Positions 2,086 to 42,659 of a stretch of DNA of 64,000 nt are shown piece by piece (the first letter of the stretch is position 1; the number at the start of each line of letters is the position of its first letter). This DNA is from Candidatus Nomurabacteria bacterium (GTDB lineage: Bacteria > Patescibacteriota > Patescibacteriia > HK-STAS-PATE-3): NCBI GenBank assembly GCA_023898465.1, contig CP060223.1, forward strand, positions 96,001-160,000. The letters are read 5' to 3'. The notes beneath the pieces are model-generated. The model was given only the letters and a program-made list of their open reading frames with translations, searched no databases and was not told the DNA's origin. The position numbers and the translations under genes were made by a program.

Positions 2086-2335
2086 TGTACGAATCCTGGC
2101 CACTTGGTCAGTACTCATAACTCGTCGGGTGGTCAGGAGATCCGTAAGGATTTCTACAAAAGGACCTAAGGGTCCGCGACCTGTGCCGAACGCACACGGA
2201 GGACAACATGCGAAAGCGTGCTCCGCCGACTATCTGATGAGCTTGTGTAACTGACCATGCCCCAATCAACTTGTTTGGGGCTAGGGATTAACCTGCCCCG
2301 ACAACAAAAAATTGGGGCAAGCCAAGGAGGAAGCC

Positions 2336-9334: not shown

Positions 9335-11107
9335 ATGTTACGCAATATTCTTGTCATTCTCGGACTCGCCATTTCACTCACCAGCTTCACGCCAAAGCAG
9401 GAGAGTCGCGATGGCGTGTATGCGTTTACCACGCCTCCTTTAAGTATTGGTCAAGGAGTGGTGGTGACAAATGATGGCATTGTGATTGGCGATGGCGTGA
9501 CTGATTCCCGGCAAGGAATACAGGAGCTGCTTAGTGGTGATGACTTGGAACATTTTCTTGACCAAAGCTCTCAGCAGTTTGATGCCGTAGAGCTGCGTAT
9601 CTGGACATGGTTCCTGGGTCAAAACGATTTTACTATTGGCACGGTGAATAATTTCCTTGCCCGTGCTCATGCCCACGGCTTGCAAGTGTACTTAAATACT
9701 TGGGAATATCCTGGCACACATCCCGACCTTCTGCCTGCTGAGTATCAGGCATATAAACTTGCTGACACCGGACAACGCGTGCCGGCCCTAGTGAATGATG
9801 GACAAATCAGCGCGCAGCACATTGATAAAGCAAACCCCGCTGCACTGGAATGGATGAGTGGGCAACTGCGGAGTGCGCTGACTTCTTTTGACGTTTTCGA
9901 TGGATACCTCATTGTTGAGGATAGGGTTTCCGATTGGGTGCATGGGTCTTTCCCACAGTATGTACGTTATTGGGATTCACCGACCTATTCCGATGCAGCG
10001 CTTGATTCATTTCAACATTATCTCCTACTGCATGGTCAGGATGCAACACAGCGATTCCCAGTGGATCGTCCGGAGTTAGTTTCTCAATTCACCCAGTATG
10101 TTCCTTCAGCCCCAGAAAGTGCTTTATGGAAGTATTGGTATCAATGGCGCTTTGAACTTTTTGCTGACTATGTGGAGAGTCTGAGTAATGCGGTGAAGTC
10201 AGTGCAAAGGGTGCCAGTGCTTTACATGCCTTGGCAACGTGTGGTGGATGAATTTGATTACGCCTACGCTGATGATTGGTCAGCCAATCGTTGGGATGTT
10301 GGATACGGTCCGGGCAATCCCGAGAATGCCATCTTCGGCGTCTCGCTTCACACCCTGGCAAAACGCGGATCAATTGATGCCTACGTGCATGAATTTGGAG
10401 AGGATGGTACGCATGAGCTCTGGCCAATGTCTTTTAATGCGCTGCAGTTAGAAAAAGCCAAAATTGCTTTGTCAGATTCTTATGTTACCCTAGGCAGCTT
10501 TATTCAATTTTTTAATTACGAAGGTAGAGAAATAGTTTCCCCTGAACTACTTCAAGATGCCTTAGCCATCGGACGGCAAAACGAGGCAAAGATTTTTGTA
10601 GCTTACGATGTTGCCACACTGTATGATCGTTCAGGTCGCTATGATGCACATACCTCAGCGCTTTGGCAGCAAGCAAGAACACATGCATATGCCATTGATG
10701 AAGAGGAAATCCGAAACGCAAGTCAGCTAGCGCCAGCGCAGGTTTTTGCTCGAAAATTACCTGAACAGATTCCAGAAGGAGTGGCCGCCTGGACTGCCGA
10801 TGATGGGTATGTGTATGTGCGGACCGAGGCTCTGCCCGGTAACGGACCATACTATGTCGTATACGATCACTGGAATGCACCACTACTTGATGCGCAGCAC
10901 CTTATGGAATACTATCCAGAGCATGGTTTAGTCGCTATACATGCTGATGGGTTAAAAGGCGCTGCTTTTCAAATCATTACTCCGGGACCGCAGGGTAGCG
11001 TCGCGTGGTCAGAAATTCGTGAACAGCTTTGTGAGCTGGGGTATCAAGGGATCGTATGTAGCCCAAATAGTTGGCTTTATCAACCAGTGGGGCTTCATTC
11101 CATGTAG
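9335..11107 (+). CDS. Exported or anchored 590-aa protein, family not recognised
   Basis: This is a long ORF in host-like composition. The N-terminus is hydrophobic (MLRNILVILGLAISLTS). It is possibly glycosidase-like, but I could not verify that. Confidence 0.6.
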   Translation: MLRNILVILGLAISLTSFTPKQESRDGVYAFTTPPLSIGQGVVVTNDGIVIGDGVTDSRQGIQELLSGDDLEHFLDQSSQQFDAVELRIWTWFLGQNDFTIGTVNNFLARAHAHGLQVYLNTWEYPGTHPDLLPAEYQAYKLADTGQRVPALVNDGQISAQHIDKANPAALEWMSGQLRSALTSFDVFDGYLIVEDRVSDWVHGSFPQYVRYWDSPTYSDAALDSFQHYLLLHGQDATQRFPVDRPELVSQFTQYVPSAPESALWKYWYQWRFELFADYVESLSNAVKSVQRVPVLYMPWQRVVDEFDYAYADDWSANRWDVGYGPGNPENAIFGVSLHTLAKRGSIDAYVHEFGEDGTHELWPMSFNALQLEKAKIALSDSYVTLGSFIQFFNYEGREIVSPELLQDALAIGRQNEAKIFVAYDVATLYDRSGRYDAHTSALWQQARTHAYAIDEEEIRNASQLAPAQVFARKLPEQIPEGVAAWTADDGYVYVRTEALPGNGPYYVVYDHWNAPLLDAQHLMEYYPEHGLVAIHADGLKGAAFQIITPGPQGSVAWSEIREQLCELGYQGIVCSPNSWLYQPVGLHSM

Positions 11108-16411: not shown

Positions 16412-16499
16412 ACCTGCATTCTGTCTTAGCTGAGCAAAAAGAACAAGTCAAGCTTCCTTGACAGCAGGGTGATGCTACAGTAGGCTCTGAATACGCACA

Positions 16500-16700
16500 T
16501 TAGTATCTCACTTCATAGATGAGGAACTCCGGTGAAAATCCGGGGCACTGCCGGTACGGTATCCTACCTTCGCTAAAGCTATGGTGGGGAGCCCGATACT
16601 CAGCTATGTTGTTTCAATCGTTCTTCCTCCGAGCAGAGGACAAGGCGTGCAAGTGCACTGTGCGTTATGACTTCTGCTCGAAACAGAAGTTTTATTCTTA
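16500..16700 (+). promoter_or_regulatory. Cobalamin (B12) riboswitch with terminator expression platform
   Basis: GAGGAACTCCGGTGAAAATCCGGGGCACTGCCGGTACGGTA matches the cobalamin aptamer core (compare AGGGAA..GGTG.GAA.TCC...GC...CGGTA). The B12-box-like AGCCCGATACTCAGC is at 16590-16604. The hairpin ACTTCTG-ctcgaaa-CAGAAGT plus TTTATTCTT is at 16670-16699. A weak promoter, TTGACA 16458 - 17 nt - TAGGCT, lies upstream. The downstream gene is DUF4430-like. Confidence 0.7.
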
Positions 16701-16712
16701 TCTCAAAAAAGT

Positions 16713-17555
16713 ATGCGAGTATTTCAGGTATTCTTGTTTGTCCTCATGATGAGTTTCAGTTTGCCCGTAGTGGCGCAGACGAGCGCTCCTCAAGTAAATG
16801 TAAGAGTTGAATCCGCGGATTCCACCTTGTTCAATAGTTCGGTGCTGGTCGACGCCTGTACGGTGACTGATACCAGTGGAGATGTGCATGAGTATGCTGC
16901 TGGCGCAGGAGTTTGTGCAATGGTGGCAGCGGCCGATCAAGCGGGAATCAGCTACAGTTTTCAAAATTTTGATTTTGGTCTTTTGTTGGCTGCGGTGAAT
17001 GGTGTAGATAATGGAACTGATGAAAACTGGATCTATTGGGTGAATGATAAGGCGGCAACAGTTGGGATGACAGACTATGTATTGCAAGAAGGTGATGAGT
17101 TTCTATTAGCGTACGTGCCCTGGACTGCCTCACCACTTCGCTTAACGCTTGAAGAAAGTGCAACACAGGCAGGTGAAGCTATCGCGCGGGTGACTGCGTA
17201 TTCGATTGATGATGATGCTTTTCTCCCAGTCGATGGAGCAAAGGTGAAGGTAGGAGAAGTCGAGGGTGTAAGCAACGCAGCTGGTGAAGTAACCCTGCGA
17301 GCAAGTGCAGCTGGTCGCTATATGGTGCAAGCGGAAAAAGAAGGATATGTCCGCAGCACTATGCAAGATTTTCATCCAGAGGATGTTGCGACAGATGCCG
17401 AATCTGATGAAGAAGGTGTAGTGGTGCTCAGCTCAGCCGATGCTACGGCCTCAGAGTCTGATCAATTCTCTACTACGCAAAGAACCGTGCTTTGGTTAGC
17501 CGGAATCGGCGTCCTACTTGCCTTTAGTATTGGCTTTTTCCGTCGAAACGGATAA
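16713..17555 (+). CDS. Exported DUF4430-like (transcobalamin-beta-domain-like) protein with C-terminal membrane anchor
   Basis: The signal peptide is MRVFQVFLFVLMMSFSLPVVAQT. FGLLLAAVNGVDNGTDENWIYWVNDKAATVGMTDYVLQEGDEFLLAY fits the DUF4430 signature. A carboxypeptidase-regulatory-like segment and the C-terminal TM segment VLWLAGIGVLLAFSIGFF follow. Confidence 0.65.
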   Translation: MRVFQVFLFVLMMSFSLPVVAQTSAPQVNVRVESADSTLFNSSVLVDACTVTDTSGDVHEYAAGAGVCAMVAAADQAGISYSFQNFDFGLLLAAVNGVDNGTDENWIYWVNDKAATVGMTDYVLQEGDEFLLAYVPWTASPLRLTLEESATQAGEAIARVTAYSIDDDAFLPVDGAKVKVGEVEGVSNAAGEVTLRASAAGRYMVQAEKEGYVRSTMQDFHPEDVATDAESDEEGVVVLSSADATASESDQFSTTQRTVLWLAGIGVLLAFSIGFFRRNG

Positions 17556-29774: not shown

Positions 29775-30596
29775 AAGACCAGCTTATTACTTTTGAAGAC
29801 TTCTCGCGTGTAATGATTATGTTTACTGAGCGCGAGACTTGTTCCAGGTTTTACCAGATGCGACTGGATCCACAGAAGAAGAAAGAATTCTATAAGATTC
29901 TTTTAATACCTAAAATGGAAGAATCCGGAAATATTAAAATATTCGGCATGGATTGGCTGAAATTTGCACGATCTTTTAATTTTCACTTGCAGGGGCTGGG
30001 TGTGATGTTATTTTACAATCAAAAACTCATAAAGATAAACGATTGAATATTGATTTTTATCTCCATCAATTCTTTTTAACATTAAACATTCATTAGAGTT
30101 GTTTGTAAAAATGACAATGGAGATATTAGATCAAAAAGTTAAAAGACAACACAATACATTAAGCAATTTAATAATAGTCGAAGGTGTTATAAGGAAGTTG
30201 GATAATATCGTTTGTAGATATTTGGCTTCAAAGCAGACTAAGTAAATCAAAAGGTAAGTATGATACGTATTATCTAGACACATGGAGGAACGGATGGAGG
30301 GAAATTCGAGTGATGGTGGAGTACTACAGCAATTTAAACTTTTGAAAGATCGTGGACTTTCTCAAAAATTATTAAAAGATACTGAGAACACCTTATTTCG
30401 ATATCCTGATTCCAGCATGATAAAGAAGTTGAAGTATAATGAGGTTTTTGCAAAAATTAATATTCTTGACGTTAAAAACTTTAAGAAAGACGTTAATAAT
30501 TCCGGAACACTATTTACAGATCTTTTTCTCATACTTTTATTTTTTCGATACGAGATAGTCGAAGGTGTTGATTAGAGAGTTATTATATAAATATGT
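29660..30596. other. AT-rich 937-bp segment inserted between the Nudix repeats
   Basis: The composition drops abruptly to strongly AT-rich. The segment is bounded exactly by the two repeat copies. No terminal inverted repeats or recombinase gene were seen. Confidence 0.6.
30282..30575 (+). CDS. Hypothetical 97-aa ORF inside the AT-rich insert
   Basis: An uninterrupted ORF in very AT-rich DNA is unusual in itself. GGAGGA precedes the second in-frame ATG (30294). I recognise no family. Confidence 0.3.
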   Translation: MEERMEGNSSDGGVLQQFKLLKDRGLSQKLLKDTENTLFRYPDSSMIKKLKYNEVFAKINILDVKNFKKDVNNSGTLFTDLFLILLFFRYEIVEGVD

Positions 30597-32446: not shown

Positions 32447-34192
32447 ATGGAAATTTTCTTTCGTGCCCTCAAACAATACAAAAAGATTGCTATTAGCGCG
32501 CTTGTGCTTGCAGCTATTAATCAGGTTTTTTCCTTACTTGATCCCCAGATATTCAGAATCCTAGTTGATCGCTATGCCAGTCGACCAGAGGAATATAGTT
32601 CACCTGACTTTTTCCGAGGAGCTTTCCTGTGGGCGCTCGGCATTATCGGCGTTGCGTTTATTTCTCTAGTCGCGAGAAGCTTCCAGGATTATTACGTCAA
32701 TGTTATTAGTCAGAGAGTAAGTACCAATCTTTACGCACAGAGTGTAGGATATGCCTTTGCATTGCCTTTTGCCGTGTTTGAGGACCAGCGTTCCGGTGAG
32801 CTGCTTCAAAAGATGCAGAAGGCAAAGACCGACATTGAAAAGGTGATTCGTAGTTTTGTAAATGTGGTTTTCTTGTCAGTCATCGGAATGCTCTTTGTAC
32901 TTGTCTATGCCTTTTTTGTGCATTGGCTGGTTGGTTTGGTCTATACGCTCATTATTCCGACGATTGCTTTCTCTGTGTTAACGCTTAGTCGTCGTATTAA
33001 GAAGGCGCAGTCAGCTATTGTGACAGAGACCGCCGCATTATCTGGGTCCACCACGGAAACATTGCGCAATGTTGAGTTAGTAAAGAGCTTGGGATTGGAA
33101 GAGCAAGAAGTGAGTCGATTGAATCAAGTGAATGATCGCATTCTTGATTTGGAGCTTAAAAAAGTGCGCCTCGTCCGAGCGCTGAGTTTTGTGCAAGGCA
33201 CTTTATTGAATGCTTTACGATCCGGACTCATCCTGCTTATGCTTTGGCTTATCTACCAAGGCAACATTTCCATTGGCGAATTTCTAAGTTTATTTATTTA
33301 TTCCTTCTTTGTATTTCAACCGTTGACTGAGCTTGGCACTGTTATAACTGATTTCCAAGAAGCTCGGGCCAGCAGTGAAAAGCTGCAGGAGATTCTAGCC
33401 ATGCCCGAGGCGCCTAAGCCCGAGCAGCCGGTTTCACTGAATGCGCTGCAGTCAATTATTTTTGACAATGTAGTATTTCAATATCAATCTAATAGCGTGA
33501 GTTCAGTCGAGCATATTCACGCGGAGGTTCACTCGGGTGAAACCATTGCTTTTGTCGGTCCGTCTGGCTCGGGTAAGACGACGCTCATGAAATTAGTCTT
33601 GGGTTTATACCAACCAAGCCAAGGACAACTTCGTTATAATGATATACCCGGATCGGCTATTCAGATTGATGAGCTGCGGAAGAAAATTGGTTTTGTCGGG
33701 CAGGAGACGCAACTTTTTGCCGGGACCATCCGTGAGAATTTGCAGTTTGTCCAGCCCGAGGCTGATGAGGTTACGTGTTTGGAGGCGCTTAAAAAAGCCG
33801 CGGCCATGAATATTATTGAGCGAGGCAAGCAAGGGCTAGACACAAAGATCGGCGAAGGTGGTTTGAAACTTTCCGGTGGCGAGCGTCAACGTCTAGCCAT
33901 TGCACGGGCACTGTTGCGTAATCCAGAGCTCCTCATTTTTGATGAAGCTACCAGCAGCCTTGATTCCCTGACTGAAAAAGAAATCACCCAGACTATCCAG
34001 GAGCTCGGAAAAGAAAATAATCAGCGCATGACTTTATTGATTGCGCATCGACTCTCAACAGTTGCTCACGCTGATCGCATTTATGTTTTAGAGAAGGGGA
34101 AGATTGTTGAGCAGGGTAAGCATGAGGAATTGGTCCAAGCTGGCGGATTGTATGCAGCGTTGTGGCGTCAGCAAAGCGGCGCGACTGAATAA
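32447..34192 (+). CDS. ABC transporter, fused permease/ATPase (exporter type)
   Basis: An N-terminal domain of six TM helices is followed by Walker A GPSGSGKTT, the signature LSGGERQR and Walker B LLIFDEATSSLD. Confidence 0.9.
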   Translation: MEIFFRALKQYKKIAISALVLAAINQVFSLLDPQIFRILVDRYASRPEEYSSPDFFRGAFLWALGIIGVAFISLVARSFQDYYVNVISQRVSTNLYAQSVGYAFALPFAVFEDQRSGELLQKMQKAKTDIEKVIRSFVNVVFLSVIGMLFVLVYAFFVHWLVGLVYTLIIPTIAFSVLTLSRRIKKAQSAIVTETAALSGSTTETLRNVELVKSLGLEEQEVSRLNQVNDRILDLELKKVRLVRALSFVQGTLLNALRSGLILLMLWLIYQGNISIGEFLSLFIYSFFVFQPLTELGTVITDFQEARASSEKLQEILAMPEAPKPEQPVSLNALQSIIFDNVVFQYQSNSVSSVEHIHAEVHSGETIAFVGPSGSGKTTLMKLVLGLYQPSQGQLRYNDIPGSAIQIDELRKKIGFVGQETQLFAGTIRENLQFVQPEADEVTCLEALKKAAAMNIIERGKQGLDTKIGEGGLKLSGGERQRLAIARALLRNPELLIFDEATSSLDSLTEKEITQTIQELGKENNQRMTLLIAHRLSTVAHADRIYVLEKGKIVEQGKHEELVQAGGLYAALWRQQSGATE

Positions 34193-34314
34193 GCTTGCCT
34201 CACTATAGGTATCTTGCTAGGCTCTAGATACCGTTCTTTCGTATTGAGTGATGATCAGCTCAGATTCTGGCTTTCTTCCCCGAGCCGTTCAGAGTCAGCT
34301 TATCATTACTCATA

Positions 34315-34387
34315 CCGCGCAGTCTCAACTTGCACCTCCTCATGCGGCTCCCGCCCATGTCGCAAGAACCAGACTGCGCGGTTTTTT
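34315..34387 (+). repeat. Terminator-like extended hairpin with CCGCGCAG/CTGCGCGG arms (copy 1)
   Basis: CCGCGCAGTCT (34315-34325) pairs perfectly with AGACTGCGCGG (34371-34381) and is followed by TTTTTT. The inner CTTGC/GCAAG pairing extends the rod. Confidence 0.5.
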
Positions 34388-34686
34388 CATACACCAAAGA
34401 AGAAGAGGCGGCTGAATCTAGGAGATCCAGCCGCCGAGAGAAGCTCGCACAGATCTGCGCGAGCGCCATTGTTCCCCGTACGTAGGGGAGTTAGGCGCTA
34501 TTGCAGAACCGACGAGCCAGTTTCGGGATCTTCATCGTGCGTCTCCTTGTGGATTGCATCGAGTCTTGTCCCTCGCTTTTGTTCAGAGAACGCAAGCGGT
34601 AGTGCCTAAGGTACACTGCATAAAAGTAGGTGTCAAGTGTGGGTGTGTTTCTTGACTACACCTCTTTTTTCAACTAGAGTAGCACA

Positions 34687-34855
34687 GCACATTAATCAAC
34701 GTGGGACTGCGTCATGGTGGAACGGGTGTTGAGTCCACTGCCGCCAGCTCAGCGCCTTGTTACGCAGTCCCACCCCTTTCCCGCCGCGCAGCTTGTTGTG
34801 AGTCTACCTACCGACACGCTCCTTAGACTCATGACACTGCGCGGCTTTTTCTTTT
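34687..34855 (+). ncRNA. Candidate structured small RNA or 5' leader
   Basis: The promoter is TTGACT (34652) - 17 nt - TAGAGT (34675-34680). A perfect 12-bp helix pairs GTGGGACTGCGT (34701-34712) with ACGCAGTCCCAC (34762-34773). A terminator hairpin follows: CCGCGCAG (34784-34791) ... TGAGTCTA/TAGACTCA ... CTGCGCGG (34837-34844) plus a T-run. I recognise no known RNA family. Confidence 0.4.
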
Positions 34856-34907
34856 CCACTTGAATTATTGCGTCGGAGTGCTATACCAAAAGAGTTAGGA
34901 AAACATT

Positions 34908-35975
34908 ATGCGCCAAGTACTACTTCTCCTCACTTTGATTTTATTATGTACAGGAGGATTGTATCTAGCGAATACTGCGCAAGCCCAGGAAAAGCCCGAG
35001 CTGTTGTTTTTTTACGGCCAAGGTTGTCCGCACTGCGCTGTAGTTGAGCAATATATTGAGGATGAAAATCTTGACGAGCGTTTTCGTATTATAGCGAAAG
35101 AGGTGTATGGAGACCCGGAAAATGCTCGCGACCTTACCCAGCAGTTTCAAGTTTTTCACGTGCCAGAGTCAAAGCAAGGAGTTCCCTTTATGGTGCTTGG
35201 GGCTAAATATTATGTTGGGGACGTGTATATTATTGAGGCAATAGAAAACTATGCGGATTCGGAAATTATTCATACCGAAGCGCCGAATGTTGCTGAAGAG
35301 CAAGGAGACGATCAGCTTCATTTTTTTCCGGTAGTTGGCGCCGCCTTGGTTGATGCTATCAATCCATGCGCTTTTGCTGTTCTGATTATTCTTATGGCTA
35401 CAGTGATTGCCTCGCAAGACAGGCGACGAGCCTTGCTGGCTGGCTTAAGTTTTTCTTTCGCTATATTCCTTTCATATTTGGCAATGGGCTTTGGTCTGTA
35501 TTCAGCAATTGCCGCAGCCAGTGCGACGACTTGGGTCACAAAGCTGGCCGCCGGGATGGCAATCTTGCTCGGGTTATTCAATCTCAAAGATGCGCTTTGG
35601 TATGGAAAAGGTGTGTTGATGGAAGTGCCAATGTCATGGCGACCTCGGATGAAAAAATTAATTCGCTCAGTCACGCATCCGCTGAGCGCCTTTGGAGCAG
35701 GCATTTTGGTAAGCTTATTTCTCTTACCCTGCACCTCTGGTCCCTACATTGTTATTATTGGTATGTTGAGCTCTACGGAATCAATAAACGCGGCAGTCCT
35801 TTGGTTGATACTCTACAATGTTATTTTTATCTTACCGATGTTGGGATTAACCTTAGCAGTATATTTCGGATTACAACCGAGTCGGCTTGAAGAAATACGG
35901 CAAAGTCGCCTGCGCCTACTTCATGCCATTGCCGGAATCATTTTACTAAGCTTAGGTTTGTATTTGTTGTTGTAG
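34908..35975 (+). CDS. Thioredoxin-like domain fused to CcdA/DsbD-type thiol-disulfide transporter
   Basis: A signal/TM segment is followed by FFYGQGCPHCAVV (CPHC). The polytopic domain carries DAINPCAFAVLI and LLPCTSGPY, the conserved Cys motifs of the CcdA/DsbD family. Confidence 0.75.
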   Translation: MRQVLLLLTLILLCTGGLYLANTAQAQEKPELLFFYGQGCPHCAVVEQYIEDENLDERFRIIAKEVYGDPENARDLTQQFQVFHVPESKQGVPFMVLGAKYYVGDVYIIEAIENYADSEIIHTEAPNVAEEQGDDQLHFFPVVGAALVDAINPCAFAVLIILMATVIASQDRRRALLAGLSFSFAIFLSYLAMGFGLYSAIAAASATTWVTKLAAGMAILLGLFNLKDALWYGKGVLMEVPMSWRPRMKKLIRSVTHPLSAFGAGILVSLFLLPCTSGPYIVIIGMLSSTESINAAVLWLILYNVIFILPMLGLTLAVYFGLQPSRLEEIRQSRLRLLHAIAGIILLSLGLYLLL

Positions 35976-36023
35976 ATAAACCAAAACCGACCTGAGCGGC
36001 CGGCTTTAGTTTTGACGCGAGAC

Positions 36024-36203
36024 TTAGTAGAGCCCAGCCAAATGGAGCAGGAGGATGAAGACTCCGATAGAGATCAGAAAGAGTCCGAGCCCCGTGGCTG
36101 ATCCCCAACTGTACCAGGAGCCCCAGGCGCGCCAGGGGAGTTGCGGGTAAGCCTCTCGGTAGCGCTTCCAGTCCTCGAGTTGCTCTTCTTGTTTTTTATC
36201 CAT
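36024..36203 (-). CDS. Small Trp-rich membrane protein
   Basis: The ORF-track start is TTG 36212, and the first ATG is at 36203. The C-terminal TM segment is GLGLFLISIGVFILLLHLAGL. There is no clear RBS. Confidence 0.35.
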   Translation of the reverse strand: MDKKQEEQLEDWKRYREAYPQLPWRAWGSWYSWGSATGLGLFLISIGVFILLLHLAGLY

Positions 36204-36393
36204 AGTTGCCAATGTTTGCTTGATAAGTCGACCTTTGGCAACCCATCTGTGCGGAATGATGTGCCCGTCTGTATGTTCAGGGTTGGAGAACGCGGGCGTG
36301 GTGTCAGTTCGCGCATTCGGAGTATAGCGGATGGCAATATTCTGTCAAAAAAGGATAGTAGCGCAGAAGGGGAAATAAGGCTATGCTTCAATC

Positions 36394-37086
36394 ATGAGCT
36401 ACTATGCTGAGCAAAAAAAGGCTTTTGAAAGGGTAGAAAATGCTGTAAAAAAAGGAAAGGCAGAAGGATCGGTAGTTGACCCGGTACAAGACTATGTTCA
36501 GGATAAGCGCTTATCGCTTACGAGCTTGAGTTTTTTGCCTCCGGCAGTGCAGCAAAAAATCTATCATACACTCATTATTCCGCTTCAGGTGGTAGACTCG
36601 CAGCAGGCGTATTTTGAAGCACGTAGTCTCCATGTCACGGTGCAAAATATTCGGACAGTCGCTGATCCGCCTCTGTATACTTCAGCTGACATAGAAAAAG
36701 CACGCGAGATATTTCATAACATAGTTCCTAAATACCCATTGCTAAAATGTCGACTTGAAGGTTTAAATATCTTTCCTGCAAGCGTTGCGATCCGTGCATT
36801 CGTGAGCGAGGAGTTTCGGGATCTGGTGCTTGAGCTGCGCGAAGCTCTACGACGTAATGGTGTGCCAGATAATAAAGTGTATGCTTCTGGAAATGTTATT
36901 TTTGGTAATGTTACTTTTGTTCGTTTTACGACTACTCCTAACAAGGATTTTTTTGCCAAAGTCGAGGAGTTAAAAGAGTGTTCATTTGGCGAAGTGCATT
37001 TAGAAAAAGTTTCCCTCATGGAGGTCAATGCGCTGTGTCATCCGAGCAGTATGCGGGTCATTGATACTTATTCTTTCCAGAAATAA
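36394..37086 (+). CDS. Hypothetical protein, possibly 2H-phosphoesterase-like
   Basis: The protein is 230 aa. One HxTx motif (LHVTVQ) is present, but I could not find a second canonical HxTx. Confidence 0.45.
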   Translation: MSYYAEQKKAFERVENAVKKGKAEGSVVDPVQDYVQDKRLSLTSLSFLPPAVQQKIYHTLIIPLQVVDSQQAYFEARSLHVTVQNIRTVADPPLYTSADIEKAREIFHNIVPKYPLLKCRLEGLNIFPASVAIRAFVSEEFRDLVLELREALRRNGVPDNKVYASGNVIFGNVTFVRFTTTPNKDFFAKVEELKECSFGEVHLEKVSLMEVNALCHPSSMRVIDTYSFQK

Positions 37087-37090
37087 ATAC

Positions 37091-37624
37091 ATGCTATATA
37101 TCACATACTTTGTTCATGGCACCACAACTGACAATGAGCATGATCTTTGTATGGGTTGGGCGCCGGGTCAACTGTCTGAATTAGGGAAGCGGCAAGCAAA
37201 AGATCTTGGAGAGCAGGTTGACGCGTCACAGTTTGCAGTCATGTTTTGTTCTGATTTGCAACGGGCAGTTGATTCAGCTGAGCTAGGTTTTGGAGGGATG
37301 TTGAAGATAATTCAAGATCAGCGTTTGCGTGAATGCAACTATGGTGACTTAACACAGAGGTCTGAGGATCTTGTGGACTACGCCAAGCATATTGCAGAAC
37401 CATTTCCAAATGGTGAGAGCTTACATGACGTTGAGCAGCGGATGCGGGAATTTTTAGAAATGCTTAACACTGGCTATGCAGATAAACATGTGGCCCTTAT
37501 GGCCCACAAGGCACCTCAACTTGCGCTCGAAGTGCTCCTGAATGGAAAAACGTGGGAGCAAGCGATTACGGAAGACTGGCGTAAAAAGAAAGCTTGGCAA
37601 CCGGGGTGGAGCTATTTGTTTTAG
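37091..37624 (+). CDS. Histidine phosphatase (PGAM-like) family protein
   Basis: I moved the start to ATG 37091. YITYFVHGTTTDNE has VHG where RHG is canonical. SDLQRAVDSAE and the distal ALMAHKAP fit the family pattern. Confidence 0.5.
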   Translation: MLYITYFVHGTTTDNEHDLCMGWAPGQLSELGKRQAKDLGEQVDASQFAVMFCSDLQRAVDSAELGFGGMLKIIQDQRLRECNYGDLTQRSEDLVDYAKHIAEPFPNGESLHDVEQRMREFLEMLNTGYADKHVALMAHKAPQLALEVLLNGKTWEQAITEDWRKKKAWQPGWSYLF

Positions 37625-41966: not shown

Positions 41967-41977
41967 TCCACCTCAGG

Positions 41978-42005
41978 TAAAAGCAATCCTTCGGGATTGC
42001 TTTTC
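41978..42005 (+). terminator. Rho-independent terminator
   Basis: AAAAGCAATCC-ttcg-GGATTGCTTTT. Confidence 0.8.
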
Positions 42006-42188
42006 GCTAATCCTAGCAGAATTTTTTTGGCGTCTTTTCCATTTTGCTCTTTTATTTTTGCACTCTCTTGACAAAGTTTCGTACCGTAGAGGGGCTGTGG
42101 ATGATTTTACCCCTATAAACATTGGCGGAAATTAACTTTTCGGTTATACTATCTCAAGAACTTTCGATAATTAATTTAAGGAGATGCT

Positions 42189-42470
42189 ATGGCAAAAATG
42201 ACCAAATCTCAACTCCTCACCATGTTGGCTGAAAAGAGCAACATGTCAAAGAAGGATGTTGGCGAGTTTCTCGACATGCTGGCCCAGATGGCCTATGACG
42301 AGACCAAGCGAAATGGCGAGTTTACCCTCCCAGGTCTTGGTAAGCTGGTGAAGAAGCACCGTGCTGCTCGTTCCGGTCGTAACCCTGCTACTGGCGAAAC
42401 GATCCAGATCCCGGCCAAGACCGTGGTGAAGTTCCGTGTTGCCAAGGCAGCCAAAGAAGCAATTCTGTAA
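42189..42470 (+). CDS. hup: HU/IHF-family DNA-binding protein
   Basis: SGRNPATGETIQIPAKTVVKF is the HU arm motif. The protein is 93 aa with an AAGGAG RBS. Confidence 0.9.
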   Translation: MAKMTKSQLLTMLAEKSNMSKKDVGEFLDMLAQMAYDETKRNGEFTLPGLGKLVKKHRAARSGRNPATGETIQIPAKTVVKFRVAKAAKEAIL

Positions 42471-42496
42471 TTTCAACAAGATAGTTTCTGATCAAG

Positions 42497-42515
42497 ATCC
42501 CCGCGAGGGGATTTT
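42497..42515 (+). terminator. Rho-independent terminator after hup
   Basis: ATCCCC-gcga-GGGGAT is followed by TTT. Confidence 0.65.
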
Positions 42516-42532
42516 GGTTATGTAGAATAAAC

Positions 42533-42561
42533 TTGATACAAAGGAATTTTTGTGGTATACT
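42533..42561 (+). promoter_or_regulatory. Sigma70 promoter (TTGATA-17-TATACT, TG-extended)
   Basis: The spacing is good, and a TGn lies immediately 5' of the -10 element. Confidence 0.6.
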
Positions 42562-42659
42562 TTATGTGAAATAAAAATATGCGGGGGATTTGCAGCTAAC
42601 AATCAAAACTTCCGAACTCACCAAATGGTGGGGTTTTCGTTCTGTGATAGTAATTTTTT

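Follow-up and report, generated by a model that had tools for sequence, protein, structure and literature searches.

The stretch of DNA analysed here, which we call the window, comprises 64,000 nucleotides (nt) of a Candidatus Nomurabacteria metagenome-assembled genome (MAG) from the Candidate Phyla Radiation (CPR)/Patescibacteria (GCA_023898465.1, contig CP060223.1, positions 96,001-160,000, forward strand), and all positions are counted from its first letter. We examined the 715-nt spacer at 34193-34907, which is bounded by the stop codon of an ABC-transporter gene and the ATG of a gene for a thioredoxin-like/CcdA membrane protein (Trx-CcdA). A preliminary description had singled out this spacer as the longest non-coding stretch of the window, as GC-rich and as dense in hairpins, and had offered three explanations: one or two novel small RNAs (sRNAs), a riboswitch or attenuator for Trx-CcdA, or a cluster of REP-like palindromic repeats. 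A rough map of the open reading frames (ORFs) agrees on length: the spacer is the longest gap, the runner-up being 693 nt (41967-42659) with a 93-amino-acid (aa) ORF inside it. The claim of GC richness is only weakly true, as the excess is slight (51.6% versus 47.9% for the window) and several coding stretches reach 55%. The features of the locus are as follows, with the method of detection in parentheses.

32447-34192, plus strand: ABC-transporter gene, ABC_membrane and ABC_tran domains (Pfam).
34195-34223, plus strand: weak promoter-like site TTGCCT-17-TAGGCT beside the ABC stop codon, putative (read by eye, below the scan threshold).
34245-34312, plus strand: hairpin A, 68 nt, 26 pairs, apical loop UCUUCCCC (folding).
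34314-34387, plus strand: H1, a compound 69-nt hairpin, then T6 at 34382-34387 (inverted-repeat search and folding).
34396-34435, minus strand: 13-bp hairpin, 34435 to 34407, then UCUUCUUCUUU; terminator-like end (terminator scan).
34436-34524, minus strand: long hairpin of 89 nt, core of the putative unit M (inverted repeats and folding).
34525-34600, no strand assigned: two smaller hairpins, 34525-34572 and 34573-34599 (folding).
34608-34636, minus strand: possible promoter, TTGACA (34636 to 34631)-17-TACCTT (34613 to 34608), putative (read by eye, below the scan threshold).
34652-34680, plus strand: promoter-like site TTGACT-17-TAGAGT of unit B (promoter scan, 9 of 12 matches).
34701-34773, plus strand: H2, a perfect 12-bp helix, an 8-nt bulge CAUGGUGG, a G-U-rich 14-bp helix and a 12-nt loop CCACUGCCGCCA (folding).
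34774-34782, plus strand: unpaired C/U-rich linker CCCUUUCCC joining H2 to H3 (folding).
34783-34855, plus strand: H3, a 63-nt hairpin (34783-34845) with 22-24 pairs, then TTTTTCTTTT; terminator of unit B (repeat search and folding).
34860-34887, plus strand: promoter-like site TTGAAT-16-TATACC, 20 nt upstream of the Trx-CcdA ATG (read by eye, unlisted by the scan).
34908-35975, plus strand: Trx-CcdA gene (Pfam and NCBIfam scans).

The spacer is non-coding. The same species is represented by three short-read assemblies made independently (L001-L003, about 99.7% identical to the window). Compared with the window, they differ by indels of 1 nt at 34550 and of 2 nt at 34815, and these frameshift spacer ORFs of 131, 33 and 49 aa. 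No meaningful Pfam match was found for ten spacer ORFs (best E 0.14), and gene callers placed no gene in the spacer in any assembly. When the 131-aa ORF was compared with 1.8 billion representative proteins, we found a single match, consisting of ten stretches in one 3020-aa protein, which we read as low-complexity. On these results we rejected a coding gene or a pseudogene, and they bear out the earlier impression that the ORF at 34214-34609 does not code. Searches with tblastn, using the DUF134, DUF5320 and other proteins encoded upstream of the Trx-CcdA gene in relatives, returned only chance matches, as did a Y1_Tnp transposase fragment from a relative (L107, see below) when searched against the window. 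Judged by these searches, remnants of DUF134, DUF5320 or a Y1 transposase are not detectable in the spacer.

We found that the spacer is far more structured than its composition predicts. Relative to dinucleotide shuffles, the fold z-score of the whole spacer is -7.8 (plus) or -9.5 (minus); the corresponding values are -7.4 for unit A (hairpin A plus H1), -7.0 for unit B (plus strand, about 34688 to 34851) and -6.7 for unit M (minus strand, 34604 to 34396). The excess is limited to 34230-34600 and 34700-34860. The centre (34550-34749) has a z-score near 0, and so has the neighbouring 418-nt gap at 35976-36393, which served as a control. An inverted-repeat search, read against the sequence, recovered every hairpin of the preliminary description with coordinate errors of at most 1-3 nt; its near-palindrome, for example, sits at 34443-34464, about 3 nt from where it had been placed. 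Two further hairpins emerged, one of 68 nt at 34245-34312 and one of 75-89 nt with the near-palindrome at its base.

The hairpins differ in the strand on which they fold best. Hairpin A, with three G-U pairs, reaches -29.2 kcal/mol on the plus strand versus -19.1 on the minus strand, and H2, with four, reaches -37.7 versus -32.5; the bias of H3, with two G-U pairs, is marginal (-34.3 versus -33.0). Two hairpins between H1 and the centre prefer the minus strand: that at 34407-34435, whose arms GGCGGCTG/CAGCCGCC can be extended to 13 pairs, has -22.5 kcal/mol on the minus strand versus -18.5 on the plus strand, and that at 34436-34524 has -41.8 versus -38.1. T-runs lie 3' of H1 and H3 on the plus strand (for H3, T5 at 34846-34850, directly adjoining), and a U-rich tail lies 3' of the hairpin at 34435 to 34407 on the minus strand. 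Because the strand preferences and the placement of the T-runs agree, we read the spacer as having a plus/minus/plus layout, in which the 34435-34407 hairpin would plausibly form the end of a minus-strand unit. H1 is probably an intrinsic terminator, either of the ABC-transporter gene or of unit A. In H2, the arms of the 12-bp helix (34701-34712/34762-34773) enclose 49 nt, and in unit B as a whole the minimum-free-energy and centroid structures are the same two-hairpin fold.

A single stem base recurs as a direct copy in H1 and H3, which lie 469 nt apart and have unrelated interiors. The base of H1, CCGCGCAGTCT/AGACTGCGCGG, is a perfect helix of 11-12 bp (34315-34325/34371-34381, plus an A-T pair at 34314/34382), and the base of H3, GCCGCGCAG/CTGCGCGGC, is the same. 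The pair CCGCGCAG-N-CTGCGCGG occurs exactly twice in the 64-kb window and never in 100 shuffles (the preliminary description had proposed to count such units genome-wide); the shared arms of the two terminator-like hairpins, reported there too, are thus not due to chance. The loose 8-mer CTGCGCGG alone is not enriched in the window. Ordinary terminators elsewhere in the window are short, simple hairpins (20-30 nt); next to these, H1 and H3, at 63-69 nt, are unusual and more than generic terminators.

Promoter-like sites stand at positions consistent with this layout. The one that the promoter scan listed, TTGACT-17-TAGAGT, lies where the preliminary description had put it, 20 nt before H2, and in the unstructured centre it stands back to back with the minus-strand TTGACA-17-TACCTT. 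The site beside the ABC stop codon has the same form as that of unit B (TTGnCT-17-TAGnnT) and could start unit A; otherwise unit A would be the 3' untranslated region (UTR) of the ABC gene. The promoter that had been suggested for Trx-CcdA itself, TTGAAT-16-TATACC, is present 1 nt from its first coordinates. The sequence of unit B holds a promoter-like site, a structured segment, a terminator and non-coding status, with the promoter match alone near chance level. The unpaired bases of the plus-strand units are 71-80% C+U and 5-10% G (71% and 10% in unit B), and the C/U-rich segments comprise UCUUCCCC, the H1 internal loop ACCUCCU, CCCUUUCCC and CUCCU. The linker CCCUUUCCC is a candidate seed, which could pair with Shine-Dalgarno sequences.

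Together, these results are best read as a lineage-specific block of non-coding transcription units, neither a decayed gene nor a known RNA family. We tentatively favour, at somewhat less than an even chance, a spacer composed of a 3' UTR/terminator module of the ABC gene, a minus-strand RNA of about 200 nt and a plus-strand sRNA of about 165 nt. The ABC transcript, or a short unit begun at 34195-34223, would pass hairpin A and stop at the U-tailed H1. The unstructured and slightly less GC-rich centre (about 34600-34700) would carry back-to-back promoters. Transcription from the minus-strand promoter would yield about 200 nt of RNA, from about 34601 to 34396, that comprises four hairpins and terminates at that of 34435-34407 with its U-rich tail; the plus-strand promoter at 34652-34680 would yield the sRNA of about 165 nt, in which a 15-nt leader is followed by H2, then by the linker CCCUUUCCC and finally by H3 and its U-run. 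Transcription of Trx-CcdA would then start from its own promoter-like site at 34860-34887. The plus-strand RNAs may expose C/U-rich, G-poor loops and linkers that, as in RsaE/RoxS-type sRNAs, could pair with mRNAs at their purine-rich ribosome-binding regions, and H1 and H3 may also shield the flanking genes from read-through. The common base of H1 and H3 (CCGCGCAG / ACTGCGCGGYTTTTTC) would have arisen when one terminator was copied from the other, with the stem base and U-tail retained and the interiors diverging afterwards. We favour this explanation because it explains why promoter, hairpin and terminator follow in that order, why the strands are asymmetric, why two plus-strand terminators occur without an intervening gene, and why some stable hairpins lack a T-run. 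Among the three explanations first proposed, one or two novel sRNAs fits best: unit B has a promoter-like site, two hairpins that favour the plus strand and a U-tailed terminator, and a minus-strand unit is plausible as well. What the sequence shows is that the spacer is non-coding, forms strand-asymmetric hairpins with shared arms and belongs to no known family; promoters, transcript ends and a function in trans are inferred.

The comparison with RsaE/RoxS-type sRNAs holds in part. Like these, unit B is an intergenic promoter-to-terminator unit of about 165 nt, with stable hairpins separated by C/U-rich, G-poor strands (CCCUUUCCC, with ACCUCCU and UCUUCCCC elsewhere in the spacer) and a U-tailed terminator. 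Unlike them, the spacer has no Rfam match, its hairpins are far longer (63-73 nt), its host is a CPR bacterium and its motif enrichment is weak. Provided that the units are transcribed, this CPR/Patescibacteria genome would offer rare instances of stand-alone regulatory RNAs, adjoining a thiol-disulfide (Trx-CcdA) gene at a place where relatives have DUF134/DUF5320 genes instead. To our knowledge, almost nothing is known of post-transcriptional control in the reduced, episymbiotic CPR bacteria. The element occurs in a single species-level lineage, and its present value is that of a candidate for metatranscriptome mapping rather than a discovery.

Several findings weigh against this explanation. 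Promoter matches of 9/12 quality occur about twice per 2 kb in shuffled sequence, and because such matches are frequent by chance, TTGACT-17-TAGAGT is weak evidence alone; the minus-strand and unit A promoters score below the scan threshold. UCCC/CUCC motifs are enriched only about 2 standard deviations above the window background, and sRNA target prediction on 56 translation-initiation regions of the window yielded no outstanding target. A covariance model of unit B misses unit A, and in a pairwise alignment A and B are similar only at the terminator base. As both comparisons fail elsewhere, the notion of paralogous sRNAs comes down to the terminator bases, and we rejected a paralogous origin of the two units. 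Between strains, the spacer has changed about as fast as the ABC gene beside it (13/715 nt versus 8/1746 coding nt), and so shows no sign of strong sequence constraint. Finally, covariation lends no support, since no homologues were found and the sole relatives are strains about 99% identical.

The strain differences are nonetheless patterned. Between the window and L001 we found 21 differences, all within 32634-34824, and none in the flanking 5.7 kb; L001-L003 agree with one another against the window throughout this 2.2-kb tract, which covers the ABC gene and the spacer. This suggests that the tract was recombined, or that the MAG contains local consensus errors. Eight differences fall in the ABC gene (four nucleotide changes that give three amino-acid changes, and four synonymous ones) and 13 in the spacer. 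Scored as 12 events, nine of those in the spacer affect unpaired positions in loops or linkers, two convert a pair to or from G-U, and one weakens a minor stem. The two G-U events preserve helices on the plus strand only: C34309T in hairpin A, for instance, turns a G-C into a G-U pair on the plus strand and produces a mismatch on the minus strand. The variants cluster in the apical loop of H3 (the 2-nt indel and two substitutions) and at 34550-34573, and the segment 34525-34600 is a hot spot with 6 of the 13 spacer differences, its fold being kept in both variants. By fold energy, the two strain variants of the spacer fold equally well. Such a pattern fits structural constraint weakly, and quasi-palindrome mutagenesis would produce it too.

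Known RNA families do not account for the spacer. With Rfam 15 at gathering thresholds, the whole window yields two tRNAs only, both outside the spacer; a whole-window search at E ≤ 1 leaves the spacer without matches, and ARAGORN finds no transfer RNA (tRNA) or transfer-messenger RNA in it. The cmscan comparison with all of Rfam, which the preliminary description had called for, thus gives no family match even at E ≤ 10, where 34100-35000 returns only two C/D snoRNA models at 17 and 12 bits versus a gathering threshold of 36. A box C/D RNA was rejected, the match (34258-34310, minus strand, E 1.8) being non-significant and on the disfavoured strand.

The spacer is likewise absent from the relatives at hand. 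In the five nearest CcdA homologues examined (P0002, P0003, P0005, P0006 and P0007; 57-61% identity), the gene is preceded by gaps of 10-44 nt or by DUF5320-DUF134 genes, never by this RNA. Identity does not exceed 61% for any CcdA homologue or 72% for any ABC homologue; the spacer is found with none of them, and synteny around the CcdA gene is not conserved. The closest ABC homologue (72% identity) belongs to L107 (GCA_043805615.1, JAZDHT010000043.1), whose contig ends 143 nt past the stop codon; directly after that stop, 10056-10198 encodes an IS200-like Y1 transposase that is truncated at its N terminus (Pfam E 2.6e-7) and within which the contig breaks off. Because L107 carries this fragment there, the junction downstream of the ABC gene is an insertion site in the lineage. 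We detected no similarity of the spacer to the L107 fragment, to DUF134/DUF5320 or to any fetched locus. The unit B covariance model finds only unit B itself; its best other match, at the relatives' loci, is the end of a response-regulator gene with a generic terminator. The preliminary description had held that a lack of conservation in relatives would speak against a functional element; no conservation was found, and the cause lies in databases that hold no close relative rather than in an observed loss. A 22-nt match to L113 (E 0.01) stands in a differing structural context and was judged to be chance. As a separate observation, the CcdA locus of that relative contains 1.36 kb without a called gene (L113 3009-4369), flanked by a NUDIX gene and a 192-aa ORF; a weak unit B covariance match within it (E 0.15) is probably due to chance.

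Four rival explanations, one of them protein-coding, were weighed against the transcription units favoured above. The strongest, which we nevertheless consider unlikely, is that palindromic or mobile DNA (ends of IS200/IS605 elements, or REPIN- or MITE-like sequences) arrived by insertion or template switching and left the spacer as its relic or landing pad, which provides at most incidental terminators and no dedicated RNA product. The L107 transposase fragment at the same junction, with the contig break there, argues for it, as do the duplicated stem base of H1 and H3 with unrelated interiors 469 nt apart and the lack of conserved synteny around the CcdA gene. The strain data fit as well, in that the spacer varies about as fast as the ABC gene and its clustered multi-nucleotide loop changes are typical of quasi-palindrome mutagenesis. 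Against it, the spacer resembles neither the L107 fragment nor Y1_Tnp at the DNA or protein level, and the ORFs scanned with Pfam between 27.5 and 40 kb yielded neither a transposase nor an integrase. The hairpins differ from one another, unlike a repeat family, and at 63-89 nt they are much longer than the end hairpins of IS200/IS605 elements, which are about 20 nt. We found no tnpA or tnpB remnant of an IS200/IS605 element or PATE; the H1 and H3 stems are alike and in direct orientation, but they are 63-69 nt long and U-tailed, which leaves the L107 fragment as the sole link to such elements. Resemblance to REP, BIME and REPIN sequences lies in the clustering of imperfect G+C-rich intergenic palindromes, two of them with a common stem, and in the Y1 (IS200/RAYT-type) fragment at the same junction of the closest relative. 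The resemblance ends with the unrelated interiors, the length (63-89 nt here versus 20-40 nt there) and the dispersion, of which none was found; nor was RAYT/Y1_Tnp present among the ORFs scanned at 27.5-40 kb or the spacer ORFs.

The search for copies bears on the same explanation. The hairpins have no further copy in the remaining 63 kb of the window, and because the window is about 6% of the 1.08-Mb contig, this result excludes only families of more than about 50 copies; a low-copy repeat family elsewhere in the source genome would be compatible with a search on that scale. Scans for the exact arms gave 97 stretches in GTDB species genomes (the source MAG is not among them), none from Patescibacteria, and three unrelated GC-rich contigs only in JGI metagenomes; IMG/VR gave two arm-pattern matches, which were left uninspected. 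No related copy having appeared in the window or in these scans, the proposal of a REP-like cluster is unsupported. A single IMG/VR match for the H2 arms lies inside a 1144-aa ORF and was judged to be chance. The GTDB scan also brought up two Acidobacteriota MAGs, VAR_78_concoct_211 and GFS_12827, with many hairpins of about 72 nt that have CCGCGCAG...CTGCGCGG arms (stretches L013, L018, L021, L023, L031, L034, L037, L041, L043, L070, L076, L083, L088 and L094). Many copies fit a terminator pattern on both strands, and from their sequences they look like a dispersed family of bidirectional-terminator-like repeats, which we assumed, from a comparison of the arms alone, to be unrelated to the hairpins of the window.

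Less probable again is a spacer of terminators and insulators only, in which H1 would end the ABC transcript, H3 and the minus-strand hairpin would block stray or antisense transcription before Trx-CcdA, and the rest would be without function. The U-tailed hairpins are indeed in the expected orientations, and conservation cannot be shown. Moreover, a per-gap scan of the window found four further gaps with z-scores of -5 or lower, so that structured spacers are common in this genome. Such a view leaves H2, hairpin A and the 89-nt minus-strand hairpin unexplained, all of them very stable, strand-biased and without a T-run, and ordinary terminators here measure 20-30 nt. That the plus strand has two terminators 469 nt apart, and no gene in the interval, implies that something is transcribed there.

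We regard as doubtful that unit B is a cis-acting leader of Trx-CcdA, that is, that a transcript from 34652-34680 crosses H2, which would sense a protein or ligand, and either stops at H3 or continues into the gene, as in an attenuator or a riboswitch of unknown class. The order of elements is that of such leaders (promoter, structured RNA, U-tailed terminator, then 57 nt to the ATG), and the CUGCG/CGCAG cores recur in H2 and H3 and could swap partners, a possibility raised in the preliminary description. The recurrence is confirmed; the swaps found by eye (CUGCGU/GCGCAG and CGCAGU/ACUGCG) comprise only about 6 bp, versus the perfect 12- and 22-bp helices that they would have to replace, and we see no plausible anti-terminator. 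H2 is a simple hairpin, in which neither a junction nor an obvious pocket is seen, and it matches no known aptamer or other Rfam model. Unlike established leaders, the structure is not conserved upstream of homologues: the five CcdA homologues examined have no such leader, and the covariance model finds nothing real at homologue loci. In addition, a separate promoter-like site lies 3' of H3. A riboswitch or attenuator for Trx-CcdA is accordingly disfavoured.

Very improbable, in our estimate, is a more far-reaching version of the favoured explanation, in which H1 and H3 represent a lineage-specific hairpin class with a kept stem and variable interior, and the spacer is an "RNA island" of three regulatory or guide-like RNAs with an unrecognised partner. 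Were this so, the variation in the H3 loop and at 34550-34573 would reflect diversification of functional loops rather than neutral decay, and the locus would be, as far as we know, among the first sRNA loci described in Patescibacteria.

Guide-like and recombination-associated systems were compared with the spacer. TIGR-Tas stem-loop arrays were checked because they are enriched in CPR bacteria and phages (PMC12045711). The CPR host, the palindromic stems around about 45-49 nt, the kept stem and differing interior of H1 and H3, and the non-significant C/D-box snoRNA match are points of likeness. Such arrays consist of tandem units with two 8-12-nt spacers flanked by conserved box C/D-like motifs. 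We found no tandem period and, by eye, no positioned UG/CCA motifs, the interiors of H1, H2 and H3 are largely base-paired, and Pfam and NCBIfam detect no Nop domain (as in Tas) among the neighbours scanned at 27.5-40 kb; a TIGR-Tas array was therefore rejected. Integron attC sites resemble the spacer in having two direct imperfect palindromes with kept outer stems and variable centres that bracket about 400 nt. The arms here are CCGCGCAG/CTGCGCGG and not RYYYAAC/GTTRRRY, no integrase was found among the scanned neighbours and no ORF cassette lies between the palindromes, and because T-runs follow them, H1 and H3 are marked as terminators rather than attC sites. An IS110 bridge RNA was likewise set aside, there being no recombinase among the neighbours scanned.

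Small protein genes or a type I toxin-antitoxin pair can be dismissed as scarcely credible: the 33-aa, partly hydrophobic ORF 34501-34602 does start MQNRRASFGIFIVRLLV behind a GGGGAG motif and lies antisense to the putative minus-strand RNA, but the 1-nt indel alters all of its residues past 17 in the three independent assemblies, and the Pfam result for the ten ORFs, the lack of a real homologue of the longest ORF and the silence of the gene callers all speak against it.

Other features of the window were observed in passing. A fold of about 165 nt at 2086-2287 (core 2096-2262, plus strand) resembles a multi-branched RNA, with a long closing helix and four inner hairpins (loops GUAA, CUAAGG, CGAAC and GAAA); its z-score is -7.0 to -8.3 on the plus strand versus -2.2 on the minus strand. 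It has no Rfam match at E ≤ 1 and its flanking ORFs have no Pfam match, and it may be a better candidate for a structured non-coding RNA than the spacer at 34193-34907. At 16497-16650 (plus strand), directly upstream of the ORF 16713-17555, an adenosylcobalamin riboswitch aptamer model matches over its full length (43.5 bits versus a gathering threshold of 50, E 1e-4); by this match, the element is probably a divergent B12 riboswitch. GC content dips to 0.25-0.35 at 30000-30500, compared with 0.48 for the window, beside several short ORFs without family matches; this low-GC patch, a few kb upstream of the spacer, may be foreign DNA. Downstream of Trx-CcdA, the 35976-36393 gap contains an unannotated 62-aa ORF (36024-36212, minus strand) with a C-terminal hydrophobic helix (MDKKQEEQLEDWKRYREAYPQLPW...LLLHLAGLY), and the two genes have a common bidirectional terminator at about 35981-36011. 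The next ORF, of 230 aa (36394-37086, plus strand), bears a weak likeness to 2H phosphoesterases/RNA 2',3'-cyclic phosphodiesterases (PDB 1vdx, E 0.018; TIGR02258, E 0.047) and overlaps a histidine-phosphatase gene (37028-37624, plus strand); from these weak matches and the overlap, the two may form an RNA-end-processing pair.

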